From an uncultured Nitrospiraceae bacterium (GTDB lineage Bacteria; Nitrospirota; Thermodesulfovibrionia; Thermodesulfovibrionales; Dissulfurispiraceae): DNA of 64,000 bases. The notes beneath the pieces are model-generated. The model worked only from the letters and a program-made list of their open reading frames with translations, was not told the origin of the DNA and searched no databases. Both the position numbers and the translations under genes were made by a program. The stretch lies in the NCBI GenBank assembly GCA_964392915.1, contig CAYMRS010000006.1, forward strand, positions 14,756 to 78,755, written 5' to 3'. Below are positions 2,972 to 21,794 of the stretch, piece after piece. Position 1 is the stretch's first letter; each line of letters opens with the position of its first letter.

Positions 2972-3456
2972 AGCAATACTGTTTGCTGATCCTCCTGGTT
3001 CCGGTATTGTTTCTCAGCGGCTGCCAAACAGTAACTTATGACAACTACTTCTCGGAATCCTATATGTACTCTCGCTGGCTTCCCGCCCTCGAAGAGAACA
3101 AGAGTACACGTTACCAGATTCACGAAAAAGTTGGCTTGCCTTCCCGCTCTTTTGAGGGAGGCAGGATTGTCACCTATCGGATTATGATAAATGAGTGGAA
3201 AAATGGACTGAGCGACACTCAGTTTAAAGCATCTTGTTTGGATAAATATCAAGCGTACGGCAGAATTGAAAAGCTTCTTGCTGACAAACGCTTTGAACGT
3301 TTGGACAAGGAGGGTGCCTTGCTCGTCATTACCGAAGCAAACAAGGACAAATATGAAAAAGAGATCATCGCCGGGATTGTCGAATATCATTTAGTTCTTG
3401 TCTTTGATGCTGTCGATGGTCTGAAAAAACATTCTCTTGTCCGTATACAGCCATGA
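2968..3456 (+). CDS. small lipoprotein, paralog 2 of 3
   Basis: 162-aa ORF with a GTG start overlapping the upstream stop. It has a lipobox (LFLSGC) and shares motifs with paralogs 1 and 3 (VGLPSRSFEGGRIVTY; HLVLVFDAVDGLKKHSLV). Confidence 0.75.
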   Translation: MKQYCLLILLVPVLFLSGCQTVTYDNYFSESYMYSRWLPALEENKSTRYQIHEKVGLPSRSFEGGRIVTYRIMINEWKNGLSDTQFKASCLDKYQAYGRIEKLLADKRFERLDKEGALLVITEANKDKYEKEIIAGIVEYHLVLVFDAVDGLKKHSLVRIQP

Positions 3457-3896
3457 AGCTCGCGTCTTTTCTTGTTTGGAGCGCACTGGCGGCAGCACTG
3501 TCAGGTTGCCTTTATATCCCGACACCTCAACACAGTCTTCTGTCCGGGCGCGGAATGATTGATGAAGAAACAACCCGGGGATTTCGGGCCGGCACTACAA
3601 CTCGCGGAGAAGTTTTGCTGCTCCTGGGTGAGCCTGACGCAACATTCAAAAATCAGAGCGTTTTTCTTTATACCTGGACGCGTACTCAGGGATATTTAGT
3701 CGTTGGCGGTTACGGGAAGGGAGAAATAGTGGCAGTCGGCAAGACCACAGTGCTGTTGCTGGAATTTGGCGAACACAATTACCTGAAGCGGCATGAATAC
3801 CTGTCTCCGGGCTTTTTTTCTTCTCCCGTCAGCAAGGCAACCGAGTGGTTGTCTGAGGGTCCAATGCCAGCCGGCTTGTCAGAAGAGAAGCGATGA
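3453..3896 (+). CDS. small lipoprotein, paralog 3 of 3
   Basis: 147-aa ORF with an ATGA overlap onto paralog 2. It has a lipobox (AALSGC) and shared motifs (TRGEVLLLLGEPDATF..; VLLLEFGEHNYLKRHEYL). Confidence 0.7.
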   Translation: MKLASFLVWSALAAALSGCLYIPTPQHSLLSGRGMIDEETTRGFRAGTTTRGEVLLLLGEPDATFKNQSVFLYTWTRTQGYLVVGGYGKGEIVAVGKTTVLLLEFGEHNYLKRHEYLSPGFFSSPVSKATEWLSEGPMPAGLSEEKR

Positions 3897-4149
3897 AAAA
3901 TGCGCGCAATTCTTGCTTATCCTGTGCACAATGACGGCAGGGTCTTGGGAGTCGGGTTCAGGCAGCAAAATAATCCCGGAATTGTCATTCGGCAAGGCAG
4001 AGCATGAGGATCTGCTCATTGTCGAGCGGCATCCCGAGCCTCTCGCCGAGGTGGGCGGCGGTCACATGCCTTCGGTCACCGAATAAAGCCGCCTCACCCA
4101 TGCCATGCCCTGCATTGTGCGGTCTTTAATCCGGCGAATGGCCCATTTG

Positions 4150-4914
4150 TTATAGATTGACCAGCAAGCCTTTTTGCTTTAAATATTCTTTGACTTCCCT
4201 GATGCTGATGGTGCGGTAATGAAAAACAGAGGCAGCCAAAAGTATCTCCGCGCCTCCTTTCGTAGCGGCCTCGTAGAAATGCTCCAGCTTTCCCGCGCCC
4301 CCAGAAGCTACTACCGGGAGATCAACAGCATCGGAGACGGCTCTCGTGAACTCCAGGTCGTATCCTGCCTGGGTTCCGTCGCCATCCATGCTGGTCGGCA
4401 GGATTACGCCGGCTCCCAAATCCTGACATTGTTTTGCCCATGCAATCGCGTCTTTGCCTACAGGCTTGGTTCCCCCCGAGACAACCAATTCAAAGCCGGA
4501 GGGCATCTGCTTGTTTCTTCTGGCATCAACAGCAATCGTTATTCTTTCAGAGCCATGCGCTTTCGCTGCGAGCTTCACGATGTCGGGGTTCCTGACGGCG
4601 GCGCTGTTCATCGATACCTTATCAGCTCCCGCCTCGAACACGAGATCAATGTCTTCCAGGGAGGCGATACCGCCGCCGACGGTCAGGGGGATGGCGATAA
4701 CCGATGAGACGTTCTTTACCCATTGCAATCGCGTTTTCCGGTTTTCCAGTGTTGCCGCGATATCCAGCATGGCCAATTCATCGGCCCCTTCCTGTTCATA
4801 AAAAGCCGCGTTTTCGACCGGATCGCCGGCATCTCGTAAATTGATAAAGTTTATTCCTTTGACGATCCTCCCGTCTTTCATGTCAAGACAGGGCATGATT
4901 TTTATCAACTTCAT
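4150..4914 (-). CDS. hisF: imidazole glycerol phosphate synthase, cyclase subunit HisF
   Basis: The translation [20 protein letters not shown]...[10 protein letters not shown]...GGGI...ASGGAG is classic HisF. I chose the second ATG (4914) because AGGGAGG lies 5 nt upstream of it. Confidence 0.92.
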
Positions 4915-4985
4915 CAAGGCCTCCCTCTGAAGCATATAAATGCTTTCAATTATATCAATTTGTCATGCCGTTTATGGCATAAAAA

Positions 4986-5001
4986 TGTTCCACGTGGAAC
5001 A
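4986..5001. promoter_or_regulatory. parS: parS centromere-like ParB binding site (perfect palindrome TGTTCCACGTGGAACA)
   Basis: Second exact copy of the 16-bp palindrome, in the hisF/dgt intergenic region. Confidence 0.8.
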
Positions 5002-5064
5002 AAAAGCCCGCGGCGCGCGAAGCCACAATAAATCAGCCAACGTCTCCGCACTTACGATCCGGCA

Positions 5065-6102
5065 TTAGATTACCTTCCACTGCTGCGGAAAGAAGAGCTT
5101 CTCGTAGGTCATCAGCGCAAACCTATCTGTCATGCCGGCGATAAAGTCGCAGATGAGTCGATGTTTTTCAGTGTCGCGGGAGATCGGAACATCCCTGAAA
5201 GCCTCTTCCGGGTGCTCCAGATAATGGGCGTAGAGTGAACGGAGGATGCCTTTGGCCTTTTCGAGCTCGGTTCGAACTGCCGGATTTTCGTATACGGCAC
5301 GATACATGAAGTCGCGGAGTCCATAAACCGCGTTTCCCATCTCTTCGCTCAGCACAACAGCGGTGAGGTTTCTCGCGAGTGAAGCATGGATTACGTCGCG
5401 CACCATCGAATCGATGCGCTTTGCATAAGCATCGCCAATGACATTTGATATCTCTCCCGGCACGTCGGAGCGCTGAACCACCCCGGCGCGAACCGCGTCA
5501 TCAAAGTCGTGATTCAGGTAGGCAACAATATCGGCAATGCGGACCGCCTGTCCTTCCAGCGTTGCCGGCCGCTCCTTTTCCGCCTCCGGGATAATCATGC
5601 CCCTGCCCTTTGAGTGCTTGAGAATTCCGTCGCGCACTTCGTGCGTGAGGTTCAGCCCCTCGCCCTCCTTTTCGAGCGCGTCAACCACGCGAAGACTCTG
5701 CTTATAATGGTCGAACCCGCCGGGGTGCAACTCATTGAGCACCTCCTCGCCCGCATGACCGAAAGGCGTATGGCCGAGGTCGTGGCCGAGAGCAATCGCC
5801 TCTGTGAGATCTTCATTCAGCCGAAGCGCCCGCGCTATGGTGCGGGCTATCTGGGAAACTTCGAGGACATGCGTCAGGCGCGTGCGGTAGTGGTCGCCCC
5901 TGGGCGCAAGAAAAACCTGAGTCTTCTGCTTGAGGCGACGGAATGCTTTGCAATGAATGATGCGGTCGCGGTCGCGCTGAAAGCAGGTTCGGATGTCGTC
6001 TTCACTGTCCGCCCTGGCTCTCCCACGGCTCCGGCTGCTCAGGCACGCATGGGGATGCAGTATCCGGCGCTCAATCGCTTCTGTCTGTTCCCGTATGTTC
6101 AT
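5065..6102 (-). CDS. dGTP triphosphohydrolase-like HD-domain phosphohydrolase (short form)
   Basis: 345-aa ORF with the HD motif ..[15 protein letters not shown].. and an ..[20 protein letters not shown].. N-terminal block typical of the dGTPase family. Confidence 0.85.
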
Positions 6103-6218
6103 ATTGCTCAGCAGAATGACGATGCGCCTATAAAAAAAGAGCCGTCAGAATGATAGCCTGACAGTCATTTTCGCGCTCCCTCATGAACCATCCTTTCACA
6201 AAGATTGCCCCGCCACCG

Positions 6219-7619
6219 CTATGATTTTCCGATCGCAGCCGCAACGCCGTCGGCAAGCGAAACAACATCATTATCCAGCACCGTCCGCGCATCAAACAGC
6301 AGCGCATCGTCCTTGATGCGCGCGATAACGGGCGGGCTCTGATTGCGGAGCTTGGCCTCAAGCGCATTGACGGTCAGAATTGCCGGGCGAATGGCAACAG
6401 CATACGTATCCAAAAGGATCTCGGAAAGGGCTCCGCCGCCCGATTGGGAGGCATCCTTCACTATTCGTATATCGGCTTCTCCAGCCGGGACAGCCTTCTT
6501 CAGGCGTGCGGCTATCTTCTGCGCACGCTTCCTAATCTCAGCGGGCTTCATGAAGAGCATGCGAAGCGTCGGTATCTCACGCTTTGCCCGCTCTTCGTCA
6601 AGATATAGATGAAGCGTCGCCTCAAACGCCGCAAGCGTCATCTTGTCGACCCTCACGGCACGCATAAGCTGATTTTTTGCTATAATATCAATGAGTTCCT
6701 TCTTCCCAACGATAATCCCGCCCTGCGGGCCGCCCAGCAGTTTGTCGCCGCTGAATGTGACGAGGTCGGCCCCGGACTTGAGAATTTCCTGGACGGTCGG
6801 TTCGATGTGGATGCCATACGGCCTCATGTCAATCAGGCTGCCGCTTCCAAGGTCGAACATAACCGGTATCGTATGCTTTTTTCCGAGCGCGGCCAGACGT
6901 TCAATCGACGGGGTTTCCGTAAAGCCGACCATGCGGAAATTGGATTGATGGACTTTCATCAGAAGCGCGGTGTTTTCGTTGATGGCGCGCTCATAGTCAT
7001 ACACATGCGTCTTGTTCGTCGTGCCGACCTCGCGCAGAAGAGCGCCGCTGTTGCTCATCACATCGGGAACGCGGAATGACCCTCCGATTTCGACCAGTTC
7101 GCCGCGGGAGACAATAACCTCCCTGCCCTTTGCGAGGGCGAGGAGGCAGACGAAAACCGCAGCCGCATTATTATTCACGATAAGACTCGCCTCAGCACCC
7201 GTAATGTCGTTGATCAGGCGCTGCACATGGCTGTACCGCTTGCCGCGCCTGCCCTGCTCGAGATCGTACTCCAGATTGGAATAGCCGGATGCAATCTCTG
7301 ATACATGGCGTAAAACAGCCTCTGAAAGAACCGAGCGGCCGAGGTTCGTATGAATGACAACTCCCGTCGCATTGATAGCCGGCTGAAGGCTGTATGCGCA
7401 GAGCTTTTTAATGCGGGTCTCCATCTCTGATTGCAGCGCCGCCAGATCGACCATAGAGCGGACACCGGAGCGGATATGATCACGCTCCCGCTGGAGCACG
7501 TCGCGGATGCCCTGCAGCACATACCGGCGCGCATAGCGGCTGATCCAATATGTTCCTTCCGCGGACTTCAGAACTTCATCAACAGACGGCAATGCGGCCA
7601 GCAGTTTTTGATGGTCCAT
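6219..7619 (-). CDS. selA: L-seryl-tRNA(Sec) selenium transferase SelA
   Basis: 466-aa ORF. The N-terminus ..LPSVDEVL.. and the PLP-lysine block FSGDKLLGGPQGG are hallmark SelA sequences. Confidence 0.9.
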   Translation of the reverse strand: MDHQKLLAALPSVDEVLKSAEGTYWISRYARRYVLQGIRDVLQRERDHIRSGVRSMVDLAALQSEMETRIKKLCAYSLQPAINATGVVIHTNLGRSVLSEAVLRHVSEIASGYSNLEYDLEQGRRGKRYSHVQRLINDITGAEASLIVNNNAAAVFVCLLALAKGREVIVSRGELVEIGGSFRVPDVMSNSGALLREVGTTNKTHVYDYERAINENTALLMKVHQSNFRMVGFTETPSIERLAALGKKHTIPVMFDLGSGSLIDMRPYGIHIEPTVQEILKSGADLVTFSGDKLLGGPQGGIIVGKKELIDIIAKNQLMRAVRVDKMTLAAFEATLHLYLDEERAKREIPTLRMLFMKPAEIRKRAQKIAARLKKAVPAGEADIRIVKDASQSGGGALSEILLDTYAVAIRPAILTVNALEAKLRNQSPPVIARIKDDALLFDARTVLDNDVVSLADGVAAAIGKS

Positions 7620-11163: not shown

Positions 11164-12315
11164 CTACTGACCGCTTACTTGCTCATACGCCCACTCAAGC
11201 CACTCAACGCAAAGCTTAACGTCAGCGGTAGCAACCGTCGGGCCGCACCAGATGCGGAATCCTGTGGGCGCCGCTTTATACGCATTAATATCGTATGCAA
11301 CGCCCTCGGAAGCAAGCAGCTTCTCAATCTTCTTTGCGATCGCCTTCTGGTCATCCGCCGAAAGCGCGGTGAACTTCGGATCAACCACCTTCAGGCAGAC
11401 CGAGGTGTTGGAGCGGATCGCCTTGTCTTCAGCAAGGAAGCCGAAGTATTTGCTGCCCGCGACCCATGCCTCAACCGCTGCAAGGCTGTCGTTGGAGATC
11501 TTCATCAGCCCTGCCAGGCCGCCCTGCTGTTCAGCCCACTTCAGCGCGCAGAGCCAGTCCTCAACGCAAAGCATCGACGGCGTGTTGATCGGCGAACCGG
11601 CAAAGATATCCTCATTGAGCTTGCCGCTCTTCTTCATGCGGAAGATCTTCGGCATCGGCCATGCCGGATCATAGCTCTCAAGACGCGCAACCGCGCGCGG
11701 AGACAGCACCATCATGCCGTGGCCGCCCTCGCCGCCGAGGCATTTCTGCCAGGAGAAGGTGAGCACATCGATCTTCGCCCACGGAATGTCCATCGCAAAG
11801 AGTGCGCTGGTGGCGTCGCAGAGCGTAATGCCCTTTCTGTCGTCCGGAATCCAGTCGCCGTCCGGAACCTTCACGCCCCCGGTCGTACCGTTCCAGGTGA
11901 AGACCACGTCATTGTCAAAGTTCACTTTCGAGAGATTCGGTAGCTGTCCATACGGTGCTTCATAGACCGTTGCGTTCAGCTTCAGCTGCTTGGTGATGTC
12001 CGTAGCCCAGTCCTTGCCGAAGCTTTCCCAACACAGCACATCTACCGGCAGCGGCCCCAGCAGCGACCACATGGCACACTCAAACGCGCCGGTGTCGGAC
12101 CCCGCAAAAATGCCGACCTTGTAGTCAGCCGGAATGCCGAGGAGCGGTCTGATATTGTCGCATGCCGCCTTCAGTTTCTCTTTGCCAACGGCTGCTCTGT
12201 GCGAGCGGCCCGGCAGGTAACCGCCAAGCTCCTGAAGCGACCATCCCGGATGCTTGGTGCAGGGACCGGAACTGAAATTCGGAACAGCAGGTTTCTGTGC
12301 AGGCTTTTCTTTCAT
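11164..12315 (-). CDS. serC: phosphoserine aminotransferase (long, about 380-aa form)
   Basis: 383-aa ORF with the N-terminus ..NFSSGPC.KHPGW.. and a PLP-lysine region [12 protein letters not shown]. Confidence 0.85.
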
Positions 12316-12573
12316 GACACAACTCCTTTATCCATGTTAGTTGACGAAATTTCTTTGTGCCTCATTCAGGAAGAGCGTAGTGAGGGCATCCTCTTGCAGT
12401 GTACACCCTTGCTGAGCGGCAAAAAGCAGATCAGGCTGAAATATCTAAGTTTCTCTTCAGCAGTGCACTCAAAAAAGGTGTCATTAGTATAAATCAAACC
12501 GGGGGGAGGATGTATAGTAGGTGATGCCGTTGTGAGCATCCAATAGCCGATTGTTTATCAATGAAAATCTCTC

Positions 12574-12602
12574 TTGTTGTATATTACCTAAGATGCTAAG
12601 AT
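12574..12602 (+). promoter_or_regulatory. candidate sigma70-type promoter upstream of hsdM
   Basis: TTGTTG (12574-12579), a 17-nt spacer, then TAAGAT (12597-12602), about 65 nt upstream of the hsdM GTG. This is pattern match only. Confidence 0.3.
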
Positions 12603-12668
12603 GAGCGATCACCGAAAATAATCAGAGCAGCATGTCCCGATAGCACAGACATATGCGGAGAGAGAGAC

Positions 12669-15224
12669 GTGGCTCAACTAGAACATATCGAAGCCATTGA
12701 AAAACGGCTGTGGAGCGCAGCGGACACGCTGCGGGCAAACTCCAACTACGCCAGCAACGAATATTTCCTGCCTGTAATGGGCCTCGTTTTTCTGCGCCAT
12801 GCATACAGCCGCTTTCTCTCAGTCAAGGACGACATCGAGGCTGACCTGCCGACACGCGGCGGCAAAACCCGTCAGCTGACCAAGGAAGACTTCTCGCAGA
12901 AGAGTGCTATTTTCCTGCAGCCCAAGGCCCAGTTCGACGCGCTTGTAGCCTTGCCCGACAGCGCGGACCGCGCAAAGGCTATCATCGAAGCCATGGAGTC
13001 CATCGAGTCTGACTACGAAGGCCTGCGTGGTGTTCTGCCCAAGAGTGAATATCAGGAGCTCGATAATGCCGTACTCGGCCAGCTCCTGCGCACGCTCAAT
13101 CCGGAAGAACTCAAGCGCATCTCTGGTGACGTTTTCGGTCGCATCTACGAATATTTTTTAACCCAATTTGCCGACCAGAAAGCCCACGACGGAGGCGAAT
13201 TCTTCACCCCGGTTTCCCTGGTCTCGCTTATTGCCAATGTCATAGAACCGACCGCTGGGGCGGTGCTTGACCCGGCCTGCGGCTCGGGCGGCATGTTTGT
13301 GCAGAGCGCCCGCGTAGTCGAGCGGAGACACGAGAACCCGACCGAAAAGCTCACCTTCTACGGGCTGGAAAAGAACGCCACCACTATCCGGCTGGCCAAG
13401 ATGAACCTCGCGGTGCACGGTCTCGAAGGCGACATCCAGAAGTCCATCACCTATTACGAAGACCCGCACGAACTCCTGCGGAAGGCAGACTTTGTCATGG
13501 CCAATCCGCCCTTCAATGTAGACGAGATCGACGCCGACAAGGTCAAGAACGACCCGCGCCTTCCCTTCGGCCTGCCGGGCGTCAACAAGAAGGGCAAGGT
13601 CAGCAACGGCAACTATATCTGGATCAGCTATTTCTACAGCTACCTGAACGAACAGGGCCGCGCCGGGTTCGTCATGTCGTCACAGGCGTCCAGTGCCGGG
13701 CGCGATGAGGCAGCGGTCCGCCAAAAACTGGTCGAGACCGGCGATGTGGATATCATGATCGCCATCCGCTCCAACTTCTTTTACACCCGCACGGTTCCCT
13801 GCGAACTCTGGTTCATTGATCGAGACAAGCCCGATCAACCCTCATCCCCGGCCCTTCTCCCAACGGGAGAAGGGAGAAATTACCGGGGAGGATATGACTT
13901 TGCCGGATTGGTTGACCGGACTCGTGAGTTGCGGAAGAAACAGACTCCGGCGGAACAGATACTGTGGGAGATTCTGCGTGACCGGCAGTTTGCGGGATTG
14001 AAGTTTCGTCGACAGCATCAGTTTGGCGACTATGTCCTCGACTTCTTCTGTCATGAAGTGAAACTTGTGGTGGAACTCGATGGAGCGGTTCATGAACACC
14101 GCACAGAAAAAGATGCAAAGCGAGATGCATATCTGAAATCTCAGGGCATGCAGGTTCTCCGCATTTCCAATAAGACCCTCGTTAAAGATACCGCTTCGGT
14201 TTTGGCGCAAATAACTGCACTGCTCCCTTCGCCCATTGGGAGAGGGGCTGGGGGTGAGGGTCAGAACATTGTCCAACGACATAAGGAAAATGTTCTGATG
14301 ATCGATGCCCGCAATGTTTATCGAAAAATCACCCGGAAGATTTACGATTTCAGCCCCGAGCAGGAGCAAAACATCCTGGCCATCGTCTGGCTCTACCGGG
14401 GCGAGACCGGACGCTATCTCGACCTTGTGGCAGGTTATTGCACCCGCATGCTGGCCGAGGGCGCCGCGTGCTTTTCGGCTCAGGACAGAGATGGCGTGCA
14501 GACCAAACCGCTGCCTGCTTTCATCGGAGCATTGGCAGCATTGCACGGCGCTGTTGAGCCGTTTCTCAAGACGTTGGACAAAAACGCACCCCACGCTGAG
14601 GCCCTTAGGGAGCTGGACGAAGCTGTACCTATATTCAAGGCTGACGTGGAAGCATTTCACAAGAGCGTTGCCGACCAGCAGGCAGCATGGAAAAAACAGA
14701 AGACAACCAATGGCGAACTGAAGAAAGCAGTTGACCGGCTTGCGCCGATGGCCGAGACGAGCCGCGACCTCGTCAAGCAGACCGATCTGCTCTACAAACT
14801 CGCCTGCCGACTTGTCGAAATCTGCGAAAACGAATGCGCCGCCCGCGACAGCGACACGTGGTCGAGCCGTGAAATCACCCGTACCCGCAAGGCTGCCGAC
14901 GAAGCCCGCGCTCAGACAGTGGAGCAGCTCAAGCAGGTGCGCTACTTCTGGAAACAGGCTCACTGGCTCACCGAGCGCTTCCCCGACGCCAGGCTGCGCG
15001 ATGTGAAAGGGCTCGTCAAGCTTGTGAACCGGGCCGAGATCGAGGCCAACGACTGGAGCCTCACGCCCGGCCGCTATGTTGGTGTTGCGCCCGAAGAGGC
15101 GGACGAGGATTTCGACTTTGAAGAAACGCTCCGCAATATCCATGTTGAGCTTGAAGACCTGAACGCCGAGGCCGTGCAACTGGCAGCGACGATCAGGAAG
15201 AACTTCGAGGAATTGGGAATATGA
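12669..15224 (+). CDS. hsdM: type I restriction-modification DNA methyltransferase subunit M (long form) with an in-frame DUF559 endonuclease-like insertion
   Basis: 851-aa ORF with a GTG start preceded by GGAGAGAGAG. It has an HsdM N-terminal domain, SAM motif I DPACGSGGM (13269-13295), motif IV NPPF (13503-13514) and a C-terminal ..NDWSLTPGRYVG... Residues about 390-531 are a foreign module, listed separately. Confidence 0.93.
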   Translation: MAQLEHIEAIEKRLWSAADTLRANSNYASNEYFLPVMGLVFLRHAYSRFLSVKDDIEADLPTRGGKTRQLTKEDFSQKSAIFLQPKAQFDALVALPDSADRAKAIIEAMESIESDYEGLRGVLPKSEYQELDNAVLGQLLRTLNPEELKRISGDVFGRIYEYFLTQFADQKAHDGGEFFTPVSLVSLIANVIEPTAGAVLDPACGSGGMFVQSARVVERRHENPTEKLTFYGLEKNATTIRLAKMNLAVHGLEGDIQKSITYYEDPHELLRKADFVMANPPFNVDEIDADKVKNDPRLPFGLPGVNKKGKVSNGNYIWISYFYSYLNEQGRAGFVMSSQASSAGRDEAAVRQKLVETGDVDIMIAIRSNFFYTRTVPCELWFIDRDKPDQPSSPALLPTGEGRNYRGGYDFAGLVDRTRELRKKQTPAEQILWEILRDRQFAGLKFRRQHQFGDYVLDFFCHEVKLVVELDGAVHEHRTEKDAKRDAYLKSQGMQVLRISNKTLVKDTASVLAQITALLPSPIGRGAGGEGQNIVQRHKENVLMIDARNVYRKITRKIYDFSPEQEQNILAIVWLYRGETGRYLDLVAGYCTRMLAEGAACFSAQDRDGVQTKPLPAFIGALAALHGAVEPFLKTLDKNAPHAEALRELDEAVPIFKADVEAFHKSVADQQAAWKKQKTTNGELKKAVDRLAPMAETSRDLVKQTDLLYKLACRLVEICENECAARDSDTWSSREITRTRKAADEARAQTVEQLKQVRYFWKQAHWLTERFPDARLRDVKGLVKLVNRAEIEANDWSLTPGRYVGVAPEEADEDFDFEETLRNIHVELEDLNAEAVQLAATIRKNFEELGI
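13838..14261 (+). mobile_element. DUF559 (Vsr-like endonuclease fold) module bounded by imperfect 23-bp inverted repeats, read in frame with hsdM
   Basis: ACCCTCATCCCCGGCCCTTCTCC (13838-13860) matches the reverse complement of 14239-14261 (ACCCTCACCCCCAGCCCCTCTCC) at 20 of 23 positions. The interior encodes RELRKKQTPAEQILWEILRDRQFAGLKFRRQHQFGDYVLDFFCHEVKLVVELDGAVHEHR..DAKRDAYLKSQGMQVLRISNK, the DUF559 signature. Confidence 0.75.
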
Positions 15225-16279
15225 CGGGAAAAAAGAAGGCGCCCAGCATGATCAATCCGCCGGCCGGAGCAGTGCCGGCAGCCTACGCATCGGCGTTTGC
15301 AGAGATTAAGGAGCGTGTTCGCACCGCCCAGTATGCCGCCCTGAGATCGGTCAATAAACGACTGGTCGGGCTCTACTGGGACATCGGGCGCATTATCCTC
15401 GAACGCCAGGCAACAGAAGGCTGGGGTAAATCCGTAGTCGAGCGCCTGTCTGCCGATCTGCAGCGGGAATTCCCCGGAACAGGCGGTTTCTCAGCTTCCA
15501 ACGTCTGGCGTATGAAGGCTTTCTATGAGGGCTATTGTTCGTCAGAAAAACTCGCACCACTGGTGCGAGAAATTGCATGGAGTCATAATGTGGTCATTTT
15601 GGAGCGATGCTCCGATCTCCTTGAACGCGAATTCTACCTGCGCATGACCCGCAAGTTCGGCTGGTCGAAAAACGTGCTCATCCATCAGATCGAAAACCAG
15701 AGTTATGAGAAAAGTCTGCTGGGCCAGACCAATTTCGACAAGGCACTTACCCCGGAGTTGCGCAGCCGGGCAAAGCTCGCCGTCAGGGACGAATATACCT
15801 TCGACTTTCTGGAACTGGGCGAAAGACACTCTGAGCGCGAACTGGAGCGTGCACTGATCGGCCGTATCGAGGATTTCCTCCGTGCCATGGGCGGCATGTT
15901 CGCGTTTGTGGGCAGCCAGTTCAGGCTGGAGGTTGCGGGTAAGGAGTACTTCATTGACCTGCTGCTGTTCCATCGAAAACTAAAGTGCCTGGTTGCCATA
16001 GAGCTCAAGATCGGCGAGTTCGAGCCCGAGTTCGTCGGCAAAATGCAGTTCTACCTCGCCGCGCTGGACAAGCTGGTGCGCATGGAGGGCGAAAACCCGG
16101 CAATTGGCATCATTCTCTGCAAGGAGAAAAACCGCACCATCGTTGAATACGCTCTCATGCCTGCCGACAAGCCCATCGGCGTGGCAACCTATGACATCGT
16201 CAAGCGCCTGCCCAAGGCGCTCAAGGGTCAGCTCCCCAGCCCCGAACAAATCGCCAGAATACTGGAGGACGGGGTATGA
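15221..16279 (+). CDS. YhcG-family PD-(D/E)xK nuclease domain protein (DUF1016)
   Basis: 352-aa ORF with an ATGA overlap onto the hsdM stop. It is YhcG-like over its full length (..LVGLYWDIGRIILERQ..GWGKSVVERLSADLQREFPG..GFS..NVWRMKAFY..). The C-terminal core FIDLLLFHRKLKCLVAIELKIGEF is a D...E-x-K motif. Confidence 0.85.
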   Translation: MTGKKKAPSMINPPAGAVPAAYASAFAEIKERVRTAQYAALRSVNKRLVGLYWDIGRIILERQATEGWGKSVVERLSADLQREFPGTGGFSASNVWRMKAFYEGYCSSEKLAPLVREIAWSHNVVILERCSDLLEREFYLRMTRKFGWSKNVLIHQIENQSYEKSLLGQTNFDKALTPELRSRAKLAVRDEYTFDFLELGERHSERELERALIGRIEDFLRAMGGMFAFVGSQFRLEVAGKEYFIDLLLFHRKLKCLVAIELKIGEFEPEFVGKMQFYLAALDKLVRMEGENPAIGIILCKEKNRTIVEYALMPADKPIGVATYDIVKRLPKALKGQLPSPEQIARILEDGV

Positions 16280-17472
16280 ACTGGGAGACCAAGAAACTTG
16301 AAGCTGTCGCAGATTTCAGTCTTGGGAAAATGCTTGACCAGAAAAAGAATCGTGGCGAACCACTACCTTATCTTGCAAATGTCAACGTTCGCTGGGGGGA
16401 ATTCGCTCTGGCCGATCTGAGGGAGATGCGGTTCGAGCAACATGAGTTGGACCGCTATGGTCTTAAATATGGCGATATCGTAATGTGCGAAGGTGGAGAA
16501 CCGGGGCGATGTGCGATTTGGAAAGAGCAGTGCGCCAGCATGATGATCCAGAAAGCACTTCACCGGATTCGGCCACACGATTGTTTGCGGCCAGAGTTTC
16601 TCTACTACTTTTTTCTCTACAAAGGTCGAACTGGTCATCTGGCGTCACTTTTCACTGGTTCGACTATCAAGCACCTTCCACGTGAAAAGCTTGCGCTGGT
16701 TGAAGTGCCAGTGCCGCCCCACTCTACCCAGGCCCAAATCGCTTCGGTCCTCTCCGCCTACGACGACCTGATCGAGAACAACCGGCGGCGGATTCAGTTG
16801 CTGGAGCAGGCGGCGCGGCTGCTCTACAAGGAATGGTTTGTCCACCTCCGCTTCCCCGGCCACGAACACACCAAAATCATCGACGGCGTGCCTGAGGGGT
16901 GGGAAAAGAAAGCCGCCTTTGAGGTTATGGATGTTCTCAGTGGCGGTACACCCAAGACAACGAATCTGTCCTATTGGTACGGGGATATTCCATTTTTCAC
17001 CCCAAAGGACGCGACCGATTTTGCATATGTGCATGACACTGAGAAATCCATCACCGAGGCCGGATTAAAGAACTGCAACAGCAATCTTTATCTAAAGGAT
17101 ACCGTATTCATCACTGCTCGAGGAACGGTTGGCAAGATCAATCTCGCCCAATGCCCCATGGCAATGAACCAGTCCTGTTATGCGCTCGTTGCTCACCCAC
17201 CGCTAAATCAGCAGTTTCTGTATTTTGCCTTGGTGGACGGAGTAGAACAATTTCGTAGCCGGGCTGTCGGTGCGGTATTCGATGCGATCGTTCGGGATAC
17301 ATTCAAGCTGATTCCTTTCGTCGTGCCAGACGAAAAGCTGATTACAGCTTTTATGGAGCACGTATCCCCAATGCTTGCTCAGATTGATAACCTTGCTGGG
17401 CAGGTTCGAAGCCTACGAAAAGCCCGCGATCTTCTTCTGCCCAAACTGATGAACGGGGAGGTGGCGGTATGA
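16276..17472 (+). CDS. hsdS: type I restriction-modification specificity subunit S
   Basis: 398-aa ORF with an ATGA overlap onto the upstream stop. It has two target-recognition halves, each followed by a conserved helix (..DDLIENNRRRIQLLEQAARLLYKEWFV.. and ..LRKARDLLLPKLMNGEV). Confidence 0.9.
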   Translation: MNWETKKLEAVADFSLGKMLDQKKNRGEPLPYLANVNVRWGEFALADLREMRFEQHELDRYGLKYGDIVMCEGGEPGRCAIWKEQCASMMIQKALHRIRPHDCLRPEFLYYFFLYKGRTGHLASLFTGSTIKHLPREKLALVEVPVPPHSTQAQIASVLSAYDDLIENNRRRIQLLEQAARLLYKEWFVHLRFPGHEHTKIIDGVPEGWEKKAAFEVMDVLSGGTPKTTNLSYWYGDIPFFTPKDATDFAYVHDTEKSITEAGLKNCNSNLYLKDTVFITARGTVGKINLAQCPMAMNQSCYALVAHPPLNQQFLYFALVDGVEQFRSRAVGAVFDAIVRDTFKLIPFVVPDEKLITAFMEHVSPMLAQIDNLAGQVRSLRKARDLLLPKLMNGEVAV

Positions 17473-17657
17473 ACCTGAAATCACTTCCCTCCCAGATCGC
17501 CCTCGGCGAAGACTCTACCCGCCAGTTCAAGGCAGATGTGAAGAGCGCCGACTCCCAGGCTATGGAAATGGCGGTCTTTGTCAAAACGGGCGGCATGGTT
17601 TTATCAGGTCACGTTGACCCGATACGTGACCTTTTAAGCATGGAGGCAGCGGCATGA
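17469..17657 (+). pseudogene. N-terminal stub of an AlbA_2 (Schlafen-like) ATP-binding/DNA-binding protein
   Basis: 62-aa ORF. SQIALGEDSTRQFKADVKSADSQAMEMAVFVKTGG matches the start of AlbA_2-domain proteins (..GE....EFK.......L..E..AF.N..GG), after which similarity stops. It has ATGA overlaps on both sides. Confidence 0.55.
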
Positions 17658-18682
17658 ATGATTCCGAAATTCTTATTTATCAAGCCGCCGACGGCAAAAT
17701 CAAAATCGATGTCCGGCTGGAAGACGAGACGGTCTGGCTGACCCAGGACCACATGGCTGGGCTGTTCGGTAAAAGCAAGAAGACTATTTCCGAGCACATC
17801 CGCAATATTTTCAGTGAAGGCGAACTGGTCGAGGAAGTGGTTGTCCGGAATTTCCGGACAACCACTCGACATGGCGCCATGCCTGACAAAACCCAGTCCA
17901 GAGACGTTCAATTTTACAACCTGGACGTGATCATCTCCGTTGGTTACCGGGTCAGGTCCCACCAAGGCACGCAGTTTCGCATCTGGGCCACACAGCGGCT
18001 GAAGGAGTACATCGTCAAGGGCTTCGCCCTGAACGATGAGCGCTTCAAAACGGGCAACTCGATGGCCTATTTCACGGAACTGCAGGAACGCATCCGTGAA
18101 ATCCGTCTTTCCGAGCGCTTTTTCTATCAGAAAATCAAGGATATCTATACCACCAGCATCGACTGCGACCCCAGGGACGAAAAGACCATCGAGTTTTTCA
18201 AGGTGGTTCAGAACAAACTCCTCTGGGCTATCAGCCGGCAAACGGCGGCGGAACTGGTGTATCGCCGGGCGGACGCCGCGCTACCCTTGATGGGTATGCA
18301 ATCGTTCGATAAGCAAGGTGATCTGGCGGTACGTAAAAGCGATGCGAGCATCGCCAAGAACTACCTCGCCGAGGACGAAATGAAGCTGCTCGGCCTGCTG
18401 GTGGAACAATACCTGGCCTTCGCCGAAACCATGGCCCAGCAGAGAATTCCCATGCACATGGCAGACTGGATTCAACGGCTGGACGCCATTATTCAGCTTA
18501 ATGGGCGGGAGTTGTTGACCCATGCAGGCAAAATCAGCCAACAGATGGCCCAGGAAAAAGCCGATCTGGAATATGACAAGTTCCGGGAAACGCAGCGGCG
18601 CTTCCAGCATGAAGAGAGCCTCAAGGAACTGGAAGAGGATATTGAAAAGATAAAGCCGCCTCAGGGAAAGGGAGGCAATTGA
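17654..18682 (+). CDS. RhuM-family (virulence protein RhuM / Fic-DOC-related) protein
   Basis: 342-aa ORF. IYQAADGKIKIDVRLEDETVWLTQDHMAGLFGKSKKTISEHIRNIF..GEL, ..FYNLDVIISVGYRVRSHQGTQFRIWATQRLKEYIVKGF.LNDERF.. is the characteristic RhuM sequence. Confidence 0.88.
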   Translation: MNDSEILIYQAADGKIKIDVRLEDETVWLTQDHMAGLFGKSKKTISEHIRNIFSEGELVEEVVVRNFRTTTRHGAMPDKTQSRDVQFYNLDVIISVGYRVRSHQGTQFRIWATQRLKEYIVKGFALNDERFKTGNSMAYFTELQERIREIRLSERFFYQKIKDIYTTSIDCDPRDEKTIEFFKVVQNKLLWAISRQTAAELVYRRADAALPLMGMQSFDKQGDLAVRKSDASIAKNYLAEDEMKLLGLLVEQYLAFAETMAQQRIPMHMADWIQRLDAIIQLNGRELLTHAGKISQQMAQEKADLEYDKFRETQRRFQHEESLKELEEDIEKIKPPQGKGGN

Positions 18683-21600
18683 ATGCCCCCGACTCCTTAC
18701 ACAGAAGACACCCTCGTTCAGCAGACAACGGCTGAATACCTTGAACAGGTGCTCGGCTGGCGGTCGGTGTATGCCTACAACACCGAGGACTTCGGGCCGG
18801 AGAGCCTGCTGGGGCGGGCGACGGACCGCGATGTGGTGCTGACCCGCTCCCTGCGGCAGAAGCTCGAAGCGCTGAACCCCGGCCTGCCGCCCACGGCGTC
18901 TCCGGATTTTCGATTTCGACTGCCCGGAAAACAATGATTTTCTCTGTGTGCGGGAGCTCTGGATACGGGGCGACCTGTACCGCCGCCGGGCAGACATTGT
19001 CGGGTTCGTCAACGGCCTGCCGTTGCTGTTCATGGAGCTGAAGAATGTCAGCAAGGATATTCGCGCTGCGTATGAGCGCAATTTTCTTGACTACCGCGAC
19101 ACGGTGCCGCACCTGTTTCATCACAATGCGGTGGTTGTGCTGGCCAATGGGGTAGATGCGCGGCTTGGGTCGGTTACGAGCCGTTTTGAACATTTTCACG
19201 AGTGGAAGCGGCTGGCAGAGGACGAACCGGGCGTTGTGGACATGGAGACACTGCTGAAGGGGGTCTGTGCGAAAGCGAATTTTCTGGACATGGTGGAGAA
19301 CTTCATTGTTTTCGATGACTCGACCGGGGAGTTCCGGAAGATAGTGGCGAGGAATCATCAGTTTCTTGGCGTCAATCGGGCTATTGATGCGGTTCGGGAC
19401 CGGAAGTACCGTGGCGGCAAGCTTGGGGTGTTCTGGCATACGCAGGGGTCGGGCAAGAGCTATTCGATGGTGATGTTTACGCGGAAGGTGCATCGCAAGC
19501 TGGGCGGCAACTTCACGTTTCTGGTCCTGACGGATCGCGATGATCTTGATACACAGATTTACAAGACCTTTGCCGGGTGCGGTGTGGTGGACAATGACCG
19601 GGACCCCTGCCGGGCAGCGAGCGGAGAGCATCTCGCGCAACTGCTTGCCCAGCACAAGGCGCACATCTTTTCGCTGATCCAGAAATTCAACCAGAACGTT
19701 GTCGAGGGTGAAGCCTATACGCAGCGGGACGATATCATCGTGATTACTGATGAGGCCCATCGTACACAATATGGAACACTGGCGCTCAATATGCGCAACG
19801 CCCTGCCGAATGCCAGCTATATCGGTTTTACCGGAACACCGTTGTTCAAGGATGACGAGATAACCCGGCGCGTGTTCGGTGAGTATGTCTCCACCTATGA
19901 TTTCCAGCGGGCCGTGGAGGATAAAGCGACGGTACCGCTTTATTATGATGCCCGCGGAGACAAGCTTGGGGTGGCGATTGGTGATCTGAACGAGCGGATT
20001 GCCGCGAAGCTGGAAGAGCTGGAAACCGGCGCCATAGATGTTGAGCAGAGGCTGGAGCAGGAACTCAAGCGCGATTACCATATCATTACGGCGGGGAAAA
20101 GGCTGGATCAGGTGGCCCGCGATTTCGTGCAGCACTACTCAATGGCGTGGGAAACCGGCAAGGCCATGCTGGTCTGCATCGACAAGATCACCTGCGTTCG
20201 GATGCACCGGCTGATTGAGTTTTACTGGAACGAACGAATCGGTGAACTGCAGGCGCAACTTCCTACGGCCACTGATGAACAGGACGAGCAGTACCGTCTC
20301 CGGCAGATCGGGTGGATGCGACAGACGCAGATGGCGGTTGTGGTCAGCGAGGAGCAGGGCGAGGTGGAGAAGTTCCGCAAATGGGATCTGGACATTACAC
20401 CGCACCGGCGTCTGATCAAGGAGGGCATGTCACTGCCCGATGCGATGCGGCGGCAACCGCAGTTTCAGAATATGCAGCGGCTGGCGCTGGACGATGCATT
20501 CAAGGCAGAGGAGCATCCGTTTCGCATTGCCATTGTCTGCGCGATGTGGTTGACCGGCTTTGATGTCCCCAGCCTTTCGACGCTGTATTTGGACAAGCCG
20601 CTCAAGGCGCATACGCTGATGCAGGCGATTGCGCGTGCGAACCGGGTGCATGAAGGCAAGAACAACGGGATGATTGTGGATTATTGCGGTATCCTGAAGA
20701 GTCTCCGGAAAGCGTTGGCGACCTTTGCCGGAACGGGAGACGGAGGGCGCGGTGGAGAGGGCGGCGAGACTGAACCTGCCCGGCCTGATGAGGAGTTGCT
20801 GGCTGATCTTGCAGAGGCGATTGCTCTTGTGCGGTCGTTTCTTGCTGAGCGGAATGCGTCACTGGACAACATTGTCAACAATACGGGGTTCCGGAGAAAT
20901 GCGGCAATTCAAGCAGCCAAGGAGGCGGCAAATGAAAACGACGAAACGCGAAAGCGGTTTGAGATCATGTGCCGCGCGGTTTTCTCCAAGTTCAAGGCCT
21001 GCATTACGGTTGGAGGCGTCAACGACTATCGGACAGACTATGATGCGATAAACATCATTTACAAGAGCCTGATGCAGGATCGTGAGCAGGCCGATATCAG
21101 CGGGATTATCCGTCAATTGCACCAGGTCGTTGATGAGGCCATAGAGACCCGCCCAGAGTGGATAAGCGAGGATTCCGAAGCCTACGATATCAGCAAGATC
21201 GATTTTGGCCGTCTTCGCCGGGAGTTTGAACGTACCCCGTCCAAGCGCACCACGGTGCAGAATCTGAAAACAGCCATTGAGCAACGACTGCAGTGCCTGC
21301 TCCGGCAGAACCCGCTCCGTACTGATTTTCAGCGGCATTACGAAGAGATTGTTGCCGGGTACAACCGCGAGAAAGACCGGGTGACGATCGAAAAGACATT
21401 TGAAGCGCTGCTCCAGCTCCTGAACGGAATGAGTGAAGAGGAAAACCGCGCTGTTCGTGAAGGACTTGATGAAGAATCACTGGCTGTGTTTGACCTGCTG
21501 AAGAAACCGGCTCTGGAGGCCGATGAGATCAAGCGCATCAAGGTGGTTGCGGTTGATTTGCTGAAGATCGTCAAGGCCCGCATTCAGGAGATCGAGGATT

Positions 21601-21794
21601 GGGAGAGCCGCGAAGCTACCCGCGATCGCATACGGTTGACCATCCGCGATTTTTTGTGGAGCGACAAAACCGGTCTGCCCGTTGATCAATACACCGAGGA
21701 AGATGTCAGGATTCGTGCGGAAGATGTTTACCGCCATGTCTATCGGGTTTATCCAACTCTTCCGTCGCCGTATTACGATGTGCGCGTTGCATAA
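18683..21794 (+). pseudogene. hsdR: type I restriction enzyme subunit R, N-terminal region disrupted (frame change with apparent internal deletion near 18876-18900)
   Basis: ORF 18683-18937 (84 aa, MPPTPYTEDTLVQQTTAEYLEQVLGW..LNPGLP) is an HsdR N-terminus. The remainder (nuclease motif D-x13-ELK in RRADIVGFVNGLPLLFMELK, Walker A GSGKS, DEAH in VITDEAHRTQ, 948 aa from GTG 18948) lies in a different frame that is open only from 18876. Confidence 0.7.

Follow-up and report, generated by a model that had tools for sequence, protein, structure and literature searches.

An in-frame endonuclease segment in hsdM

In the 64,000-nucleotide stretch of DNA studied here (contig CAYMRS010000006.1 of an uncultured Nitrospiraceae bacterium; hereafter the window), the hsdM gene of a restriction-modification (RM) system of type I carries an extra segment that encodes a DUF559 domain between two inverted DNA repeats, which we call arms. 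This hsdM gene occupies positions 12669 to 15224 of the forward strand and is, as the original prediction had stated, unbroken, with an intact open reading frame (ORF) of 851 amino acids (aa). Its identity as the methyltransferase subunit is apparent from its domains, its S-adenosylmethionine and NPPF motifs and its location in one operon with hsdS and hsdR. Specifically, Pfam places HsdM_N at aa 10-141 and N6_Mtase at aa 153-389, the motifs DPACGSGG and NPPF are both present in the translation, and TIGR00497 also matches the protein, with a score below the cut-off. The N6_Mtase match breaks off at position 236 of the 311 positions in the profile, and in a search with the whole protein a DUF559 match follows at aa 416-518 (E=2.5e-35). 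When the insert was searched alone, it matched Pfam DUF559 (PF04480) over profile positions 5-107 of 109 with an E-value of 1.1e-36 and 125.4 bits, compared to a cut-off of 20.6. The earlier assignment of aa ~390-531 to DUF559, and not to the methyltransferase, thus holds under profile searches. Moreover, deletion of aa 390-536 from the sequence leaves a protein of 704 aa in which the N6_Mtase match crosses the junction (profile positions 3-272) and its score rises from 239 to 255 bits.

Hundreds of orthologues have this shorter form. About 100 of the best homologues are 704-aa proteins from Thermodesulfobacteriota, one spirochaete, Gammaproteobacteria and others, which are 88-95% identical to the window's HsdM over the matched halves. 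In these empty alleles ...WFLNRAKPE is followed by AHRDKVLMIDARN... with no residue in between, and the HsdM blocks that flank the insert are thus contiguous elsewhere, as the original prediction had stated of long-form HsdM proteins. DUF559 is present at exactly the window's position in 16 homologues of 836-903 aa, and at the same codon in 12 further genome loci. The insert is therefore absent from most orthologues, and the alleles that contain it have the arms as well.

The exact bounds were obtained from a DNA alignment with locus L001, an insert-less allele with 83% identical DNA. The alignment has a gap of 441 nt that corresponds to positions 13836 to 14276 of the forward strand (147 codons, aa 390-536), between ...ELWFIDRDKPD before the cassette and HKENVLMIDARN... 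after it. The originally proposed bounds of the element, 13838 and 14261, remain valid as the outer ends of the arms, and not as those of the in-frame unit: from arm end to arm end there are 424 nt, which is no multiple of 3. To the left the insertion extends by one more codon and to the right by five more (QNIVQ), which brings it to 441 nt. Judged by these matches, the DUF559 domain is expected to loop out of the N6_Mtase domain between two flexible linkers. An AlphaFold2 model of the whole HsdM, built on a 22-sequence alignment, was poor (mean predicted local distance difference test score, pLDDT, of 54; N-terminal half below 50) and suggests no more than a folded DUF559 domain (pLDDT 60-80) between low-confidence linkers.

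The left arm (13838 to 13876, forward strand; ACCCTCATCCCCGGCCCTTCTCCCAACGGGAGAAGGGAG, translated PSSPALLPTGEG) is of the type designated T below and the right arm (14223 to 14261, forward strand, inverted; CTCCCTTCGCCCATTGGGAGAGGGGCTGGGGGTGAGGGT, translated LPSPIGRGAGGEG) of type C, with nhmmer E-values of 2e-14 and 2e-12, respectively. Each arm is 39 nt long, and 34 of the 39 positions (87%) are complementary. The inverted repeat noticed at first, 23 bp with 20 matches, is therefore real and longer than had been thought. The left arm fits the arm consensus and forms a perfect 10-bp hairpin at 13852-13874 (DNA folding free energy, dG, -10.8; z -3.4). The hairpin of the right arm is no better than those of shuffled sequences (z -0.2) because its stem has two mismatches, so that of the two local hairpins proposed for the ends only the left one stood up. 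The right arm of the window's copy is partly decayed.

Directly 3' of the right arm lies another hairpin (14261 to 14298, forward strand; TCAGAACATTGTCC...GGAAAATGTTCTGA; dG -10, z -5.5). Its 5' half consists of extra sequence that is not found in empty alleles, and its 3' half of the host codons K-E-N-V-L. This junction hairpin is kept in loci L083, L086 and L014 with its halves swapped (AACATT for AATGTT and vice versa), and it is missing from the other subgroup (RFSxPLNRKGH) and from empty alleles. It may represent an insertion footprint or a recognition site.

The cassette family, its nuclease and its arms

When GTDB was scanned with one genome for each species, 445 stretches were confirmed, and the 80 copies or loci referred to below are the best 80 of these 445. 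In addition, 1.84 billion representative proteins were searched exhaustively with phmmer. The unit seen in the window, consisting of an arm, a motif of the type HYRGGxDFSGL, DUF559 and a second arm, was found in frame in other genes too. This arm-nuclease-arm layout, with equal distances and with the HYRGG start right after the left arm, is shared by all 80 loci and by stand-alone intergenic copies. The 80 loci span more than 10 phyla, including Verrucomicrobiota, Omnitrophota, Hydrogenedentota, Nitrospirota, Thermodesulfobacteriota, Planctomycetes, cyanobacteria, Proteobacteria, Acidobacteriota, Firmicutes and others, and in 80/80 the cassette lies in frame within a long continuous ORF. When the cassettes were masked, the hosts fell into three clusters of 39, 34 and 7 loci, which correspond to HsdM-, HsdR- and HsdS-type proteins as judged by representative sequences. 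Single-linkage clustering of the flanks distinguished at least 8 insertion-site classes, a count that is approximate because the clustering merged HsdS and HsdM sites that both follow a WFID-like motif. Fragments of other RM proteins, which are among the closest relatives of the window's insert, have the unit at further places, namely in short-type HsdM between TYHAWR and GFCKSA, in HsdM_N, in HsdR near the DEAH box and at the HsdR N-terminus.

The phmmer search returned 24,941 matches (representative clusters) at E<=1e-3. Among the 146 best new proteins, 79 are at least 300 aa long, and the match coordinates put the cassette inside most of these. Their Pfam domains are Methylase_S (35), N6_Mtase (12), MmeI_Mtase (10), Eco57I (9), HSDR_N (5), TaqI_C (3), ResIII (3) and SWI2_SNF2 (2). 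Hosts outside RM were represented by one or two proteins each, namely FGE-sulfatase, CobT-type phosphoribosyltransferase, nSTAND1, poly(A) polymerase, RecG and radical SAM proteins. Besides hsdM, hsdR and hsdS, type IIG genes and enzymes of the MmeI/Eco57I type thus contain the cassette as well, and its nuclease-bearing form is almost confined to RM genes. One HsdR gene of Verrucomicrobiota (locus L011, ORF 3209-7402) holds two complete DUF559 cassettes and several solo arms, all in frame; five nhmmer arm matches lie outside its first cassette, and two of them flank the second. In locus L051 (2588-2685), an arm plus 28 nt is tandemly duplicated (RPSPQPLSQWEREAQNKQQDG twice) in an HsdM-type ORF, upstream of the cassette.

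The closest relatives of the window's insert are 55-67% identical and are either stand-alone ORFs or fragments of other RM proteins. The stand-alone relatives are 136 aa long and 55-60% identical; their ORF ends in ...LPSPSGRGVGGEGL, which is the right arm, and more arms follow downstream. These genes sit among ordinary genes, for instance between lptD and lpxB. In the example at locus L089 (5001-7198), arms are located at 5432-5522, and a Y1_Tnp (IS200/RAYT-type) gene without flanking arms is present 1.3 kb downstream of DUF559. Many stand-alone 136-aa DUF559 proteins are labelled 'type I restriction enzyme R subunit' by JGI, a label that probably stems from cassette-bearing HsdR sequences contaminating the orthologue model.

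Within the window's cassette, a subfamily-specific N-terminal motif (NYRGGYDFAGL, 13875 to 13907, forward strand) lies upstream of the Pfam match, and its residues R17 and G19 are near-invariant to invariant in the 80 copies. The DUF559 core with its Vsr-type endonuclease fold follows at 13914 to 14222 (forward strand; HsdM aa 416-518). The core residues of catalytic type are E429, D458, E469, D471, H475 and D482 in HsdM numbering (E40, D69, E80, D82, H86 and D93 of the cassette); the original prediction had judged a D..E-x-D..H core to be apparently intact. All six are invariant in 80/80 copies, the window's included, as are W44, R48, F57, R59, H61, G64, C72, R96 and N112. The ratio of non-synonymous to synonymous substitution rates (dN/dS) in the core is 0.07-0.27 where synonymous sites are unsaturated; the nuclease is under purifying selection. 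The cassette profile matches the DUF559 structure 3HRL (E=7e-28) and also 3R3P, the catalytic domain of the homing endonuclease I-Bth0305I (E=2e-4). In the latter alignment, D69 falls on the position of D196A in the crystal and D82 on N208; given a one-residue shift, H86 would be H213 and D93 would be D222. The window's cassette furthermore matches NCBIfam PRK09767 (E=4.6e-24). A Pfam search revealed no Hint, intein or splicing domain in the window's HsdM, and an Rfam search gave no significant match, the only one listed being msiK with 15.7 bits and E=0.55 against a gathering score of 33. PADLOC has no family for the cassette, and its sole match, to DpdF, was weak (E=3e-4).

The arms show a different kind of conservation. 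Their consensus is ACCCTCAYCCCCRGCCCYTCTCCCAnnGGGAGARGGGAG, with the reverse complement at the opposite end, and it is near-identical across phyla; in locus L012 the two arms are complementary at 40/40 positions. In a codon alignment of the 80 copies, Gly codons vary little at the third position in the arms (entropy 0.2-0.7 bits) and far more in the core (~1.9 bits). We compared 105 pairs of hsdM genes with a cassette at the window's site at four-fold degenerate positions. The mean difference was 0.23 in the arms. In the host-gene scaffold it was 0.60 (N-terminal part) and 0.64 (C-terminal part), and the nuclease core had 0.68; arm dN/dS was mostly ~0.4-1.3. It is therefore the nucleotides that are constrained, and not the peptide of the linker. 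Base pairs of the arm hairpin are kept in 97% of cells, and there is one compensatory pair (C-G 31, T-A or U-A 24). Of the six frames of the consensus arm, 5 are open and read as Pro/Gly/Ser-rich peptides, and its translations PSPPAPLPEGEG, LPSPSGRGAGGEG, SPLPLGEGLGVR, PHPQPLSQRERG and TLTPSPSPRGRG are found as peptides in proteins. Two co-varying arm types were distinguished among 58 arms of 29 cassettes, type T (CATCCCC / CCCTTCTCCC / GGGAGAAGGG) and type C (CACCCCC / CCCCTCTCCC / GGGAGAGGGG). The left and right arm of one cassette often differ in type, as they do in the window.

Arms were also found alone. Their density is 0.45 per kb in the host RM ORFs versus 0.079 in flanking DNA (5.7-fold), and an exact-pattern scan detected 11 arms in 2.9 million viral contigs. 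The metagenomes contain at least 131 arms in 120 loci. Among the matches listed, 6 of these arms adjoin a DUF559, and of 42 host ORFs with an internal arm five encode N6_Mtase and the others are unrelated. Solo arms of 36 nt occur in frame in RecQ, AcrB, a class I tRNA synthetase, topoisomerase, PPDK, FabA and UbiD, and also in intergenic DNA (loci L102-L220), and they are spread over many environments. Hence the arm alone is a widespread repeat, similar to repetitive extragenic palindromic (REP) sequences and miniature transposable elements with inverted repeats (MITEs), that is able to sit in frame anywhere. The near-exclusive tie to RM genes is a property of the nuclease-bearing form. At one HsdR site, between VEC(I/V)RQ and RRW(E/Q)IVRLIDF, a full cassette is present in L068 and P0159, and L011, L016 and L057 have an element of ~60 nt that consists of the left arm and the outer end of the right arm. 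To judge from its composition, this short element is presumably an internal-deletion derivative that has kept both termini. Solo arms at the hsdM site of empty alleles, as a 'landing pad' model would have them, were not found.

Age, spread and alternative explanations

In a scaffold comparison, the cassette-bearing hsdM genes of the window, P0002, P0003 and P0006 nest among empty alleles. Residues linked to the insert flank the site (LN to ID at 383-384 and RD to KG at 392-393), and the distal diagnostic residues of the cassette-bearing alleles follow the empty type. For some pairs of genes, the cassette and its scaffold have clearly different ages. At four-fold degenerate sites, L083 and L086 differ by 0.07 in the cassette and by 0.43 and 0.53 in the scaffold; their near-identical tract extends from ~40 nt left to ~65 nt right of the cassette, this being the sole pair examined base by base. 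For L004, L015 and L022 the values are 0.22-0.28 in the cassette and 0.53-0.64 in the scaffold, and for L067 versus L077 they are 0.00 and 0.20. In total, the cassette is much younger than the scaffold in five pairs, four of which are hsdM genes with the cassette at the same site, and it is older than the scaffold in 27 pairs. Such an age discordance with short flanks would be the pattern expected of homing with short co-conversion tracts.

The window's own copy does not belong to these cases. Its nearest relative is that of L003, which is 72% identical in the core. The two differ at four-fold degenerate sites by 0.44 in the cassette, by 0.47 and 0.45 in the two parts of the scaffold and by 0.18 in the arms. 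Cassette and scaffold are thus equally diverged, and the insertion is therefore old and has co-diverged with the gene. On these figures, the window's copy is an old, vertically co-diverging member of the family with an intact nuclease, and no recent arrival.

From these sequence comparisons, we consider it probable that the 441-bp segment represents one copy of a selfish endonuclease DNA cassette that is self-contained and manages without intron or intein. The original prediction of a mobile nuclease cassette inserted in frame, comparable to the Rickettsia palindromic elements (RPEs), gains support from the many insertion sites, the constraint on the arms at the DNA level, the discordant histories and the arm-only derivatives. 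The proposed mechanism is as follows. The cassette encodes a DUF559/Vsr-fold (EDxHD-like) endonuclease of ~115 aa without a start or stop codon of its own. Because its length preserves the frame of the host gene, translation adds a nuclease domain, held by two flexible linkers, to the host protein. This nuclease would then nick or cut DNA, be it in an empty allele, at the hairpin of an arm or in the loop of a heteroduplex, and recombinational repair would copy the cassette in, which amounts to homing without intron or intein. The cassette would spread mainly by recombinational copying between alleles and colonise new sites only rarely, and internal deletion would yield short derivatives that retain only the arms. 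Both the role of the nuclease as the cause of copying and its target are deduced from the sequences and the comparison with homing endonucleases.

It is conceivable, and we put this forward with some reserve, that the family constitutes a distinct class of mobile elements. These would be homing-type Vsr-fold nucleases that can dispense with intron and intein because their palindromic ends also serve as ORF-compatible linker codons, living as specialised hyperparasites of RM genes across bacterial phyla, with a nuclease that biases repair and with the dispersed 39-nt arms as non-autonomous derivatives. The nuclease of such elements would act on arm hairpins or heteroduplex loops, and repair would be biased to the cassette-bearing strand.

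Several observations weigh against a selfish homing cassette. Firstly, the nuclease of ~115 aa has no separate DNA-binding domain that could provide homing specificity. Secondly, 0 of the 80 sampled copies have lost a catalytic residue, as expected of a domain that is useful to the host. Dead copies are normally numerous for genes of homing endonucleases, although the choice of the 80 by similarity is biased towards intact ones. Thirdly, selfishness alone does not explain the near-exclusive association with RM, and nuclease activity, target site and transfer are all predicted from sequence. Fourthly, an nhmmer search detected no further arms within the 64-kb window. Cassettes cluster by site, in that 63 of 78 have their nearest neighbour at the site they themselves occupy (permutation mean 18.6, maximum 34), and in most close pairs cassette and scaffold are equally diverged; movement is therefore rare, and jumps to new sites are rare and old. 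Ordinary recombination patches into which the cassette fell by chance could account for the lateral cases. Lastly, a target-site duplication, for which the original prediction had left room, did not turn up: the flanks of 75 copies contain no consistent direct repeat, and transposase-like insertion chemistry is therefore not supported.

An alternative is that the domain is adaptive. According to this explanation, DUF559 was exapted as a working accessory nuclease of RM enzymes, for a second cleavage or nicking step, for repair or for self-control, and it is kept for the benefit of the host, its origin by insertion being mere history. Such a host-useful domain is a serious rival, compatible with a selfish origin, even though we regard it as rather unlikely as the full account. 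It draws support from the near-exclusive association with RM proteins, from the invariant catalytic residues and the purifying selection on the core, from the long co-divergence of most cassettes with their host genes, and from the fact that the fusion is always in frame, which makes the nuclease physically part of a DNA-handling complex. However, one structural role is hard to reconcile with at least 8 unrelated positions in three subunits and in other enzyme classes, and with the two copies in the HsdR of L011. Most orthologues, the 704-aa alleles, work without the cassette, and the linkers are conserved as DNA and not as protein, where a pure protein-function model predicts otherwise. The transfers of a cassette plus short flanks point to behaviour at the level of the element, and there is no link to the loss of HsdR that is described below.

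We consider it quite improbable that the nuclease is a mere passenger, in the sense that the 39-nt arm is an independent, widespread palindromic repeat moved by another enzyme or by recombination and that a DUF559 gene, unrelated to the arms and to mobility, became trapped between two copies of it. The small fraction of the listed metagenome arms that adjoin DUF559, the in-frame solo arms in unrelated genes and intergenic DNA and the Y1 transposase gene near the stand-alone DUF559 of L089 would all fit in with this explanation. Chance trapping, however, would not have produced the uniform arm-nuclease-arm unit of all 80 loci and the stand-alone copies, it predicts no purifying selection on the nuclease, and a transposase was not seen near RM-embedded copies. 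An assembly chimera, or a chance inverted repeat in G+C-rich sequence, has the poor whole-protein structure prediction as the sole observation in its favour and can be set aside as virtually negligible, since the independent Logan assembly SRR8863431 encodes an identical 851-aa protein, a cassette is present at this very codon in 27 other hsdM genes, and the number of matches to the hairpin core expected from shuffled versions of the window is 0.00, against the highly significant nhmmer matches of both arms.

The remaining genes of the operon bear on a further proposal. The hsdS gene (16276 to 17472, forward strand) contains neither cassette nor arm. The hsdR gene (18683 to 21794, forward strand) is indeed damaged, as the original prediction had noticed, and consists of an 84-aa N-terminal fragment (18683-18937) and a subsequent ORF of 948 aa (18948-21794). 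Residues 1-75 of its relatives align with one frame (18683-18907) and those from 118 on with another (from 18894), with a loss of ~42 codons (aa 76-117 of the relatives) in addition to the frame change. The long ORF still includes the region of the PD-(D/E)xK motif (ADIVGF...MELKN). The accompanying idea that the M subunit acquired its own nuclease as a substitute for that of the R subunit had to be rejected. In two relatives with a cassette-bearing hsdM, the hsdR N-terminus is uninterrupted over the stretch captured (L005, aa 6-346; L022, aa 7-281), and 34 of the 80 cassettes are located inside hsdR itself.

The hsd genes of the window are separated by two passenger genes. One (15221-16279) encodes a YhcG/DUF1016 protein with a PD-(D/E)xK nuclease, which is the PADLOC candidate PDC-S02 (E=1.5e-146), and the other (17654-18682) encodes RhuM (PADLOC PDC-S05, E=2.6e-136). 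Relatives have other passengers at these places; L084 and L001, for instance, have AAA, SLFN/AlbA_2 and ResIII genes. A controller-like HTH_3 gene of 71-131 aa lies directly upstream of hsdM, or overlaps it, in L001 and L083-L086; in the window, no HTH_3-type ORF is present at 12316-12668, the interval between the serC-like gene (11164-12315) and hsdM.

Comparison with known systems

The cassette is not described in the literature we searched on DUF559, on the arm peptides, on prokaryotic MITEs (PMC10969869) and on Vsr-like or homing endonucleases in combination with hsdM or RM, subscription journals being outside this coverage. The family, in which a homing endonuclease gene would be combined with an in-frame palindromic element, is thus apparently undescribed. 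If this interpretation is true, it adds a third way in which homing endonucleases can spare the host gene, besides introns and inteins, with DNA repeats that double as protein linkers. An RM-restricted selfish element would, moreover, be a parasite of another selfish or defence system. The DUF559 family is very large and has no established function, and the link to a cis element and to mobility would supply one. The cassette is also relevant to the annotation of RM enzymes, and for engineering it is useful that the arms and linkers show where HsdM, HsdS and HsdR accept a whole inserted domain.

Stand-alone DUF559 proteins, such as 3HRL from Neisseria gonorrhoeae and PRK09767, have the same domain as the cassette, and its closest relatives among them end in the right arm; they differ in being separate genes between ordinary genes. 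Mobility of stand-alone DUF559 proteins is not described in the literature searched. With MITEs the cassette shares terminal inverted repeats, which are 39 nt long and complementary at 34/39 positions in the window and at up to 40/40 elsewhere. Unlike a MITE, it encodes a conserved nuclease, it lacks a target-site duplication, and no other arms accompany it in the window.

A parallel in layout is offered by REP sequences and RAYT (REP-associated tyrosine) transposases, the REPtrons or REPINs reportedly described by Nunvar in 2010 and by Bertels and Rainey in 2011. In these as in the cassette, a short palindromic repeat, which is dispersed alone as well, brackets an enzyme gene with two inverted copies of itself. 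However, the enzyme of the cassette is DUF559 with its PD-(D/E)xK/Vsr fold and not a Y1 (HUH) transposase, and its copies are intragenic and in frame where REP sequences are extragenic. As to RPEs, these are elements of ~100-150 bp without an encoded enzyme, and they are confined to Rickettsia (PMC10969869). The solo arms resemble them, as far as behaviour is compared, in being palindromic DNA that sits in frame in unrelated ORFs, in several frames, and yields a tolerated peptide. They differ from RPEs in their length of 39 nt, in their occurrence in many phyla and in that two of them can bracket a nuclease gene, this nuclease form being tied to RM genes.

Inteins with a homing endonuclease are likewise in-frame selfish insertions in conserved, often DNA-handling proteins, and their nuclease is translated together with the host protein. 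The cassette differs from them in that it is without a Hint or splicing domain, its flanks are Pro/Gly linkers derived from DNA repeats, and nothing hints at protein splicing. Homing endonucleases are otherwise housed in self-splicing introns or in free-standing genes; for the cassette, the searches gave neither a Hint domain nor an Rfam intron, and the ORF is continuous in 80/80 loci.

A further system is I-Bth0305I (PDB 3R3P; Taylor et al. 2011). It is the prototype of those homing endonucleases that are Vsr-like and of the EDxHD type; their genes are found within introns or inteins or stand free, and the roles of the active-site residues have been described (PMC3239194). The cassette shares with it a homologous catalytic domain with equivalent acidic and His residues and the location of the gene within a conserved host gene, and its discordant ages and short flanks may be signs of lateral copying. 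I-Bth0305I, in contrast, resides in a self-splicing group I intron and has an N-terminal NUMOD/helix-turn-helix DNA-binding region. The cassette has neither intron, intein nor DNA-binding domain, and its nuclease would instead stay in the mature host protein, with the palindromic arms around it.

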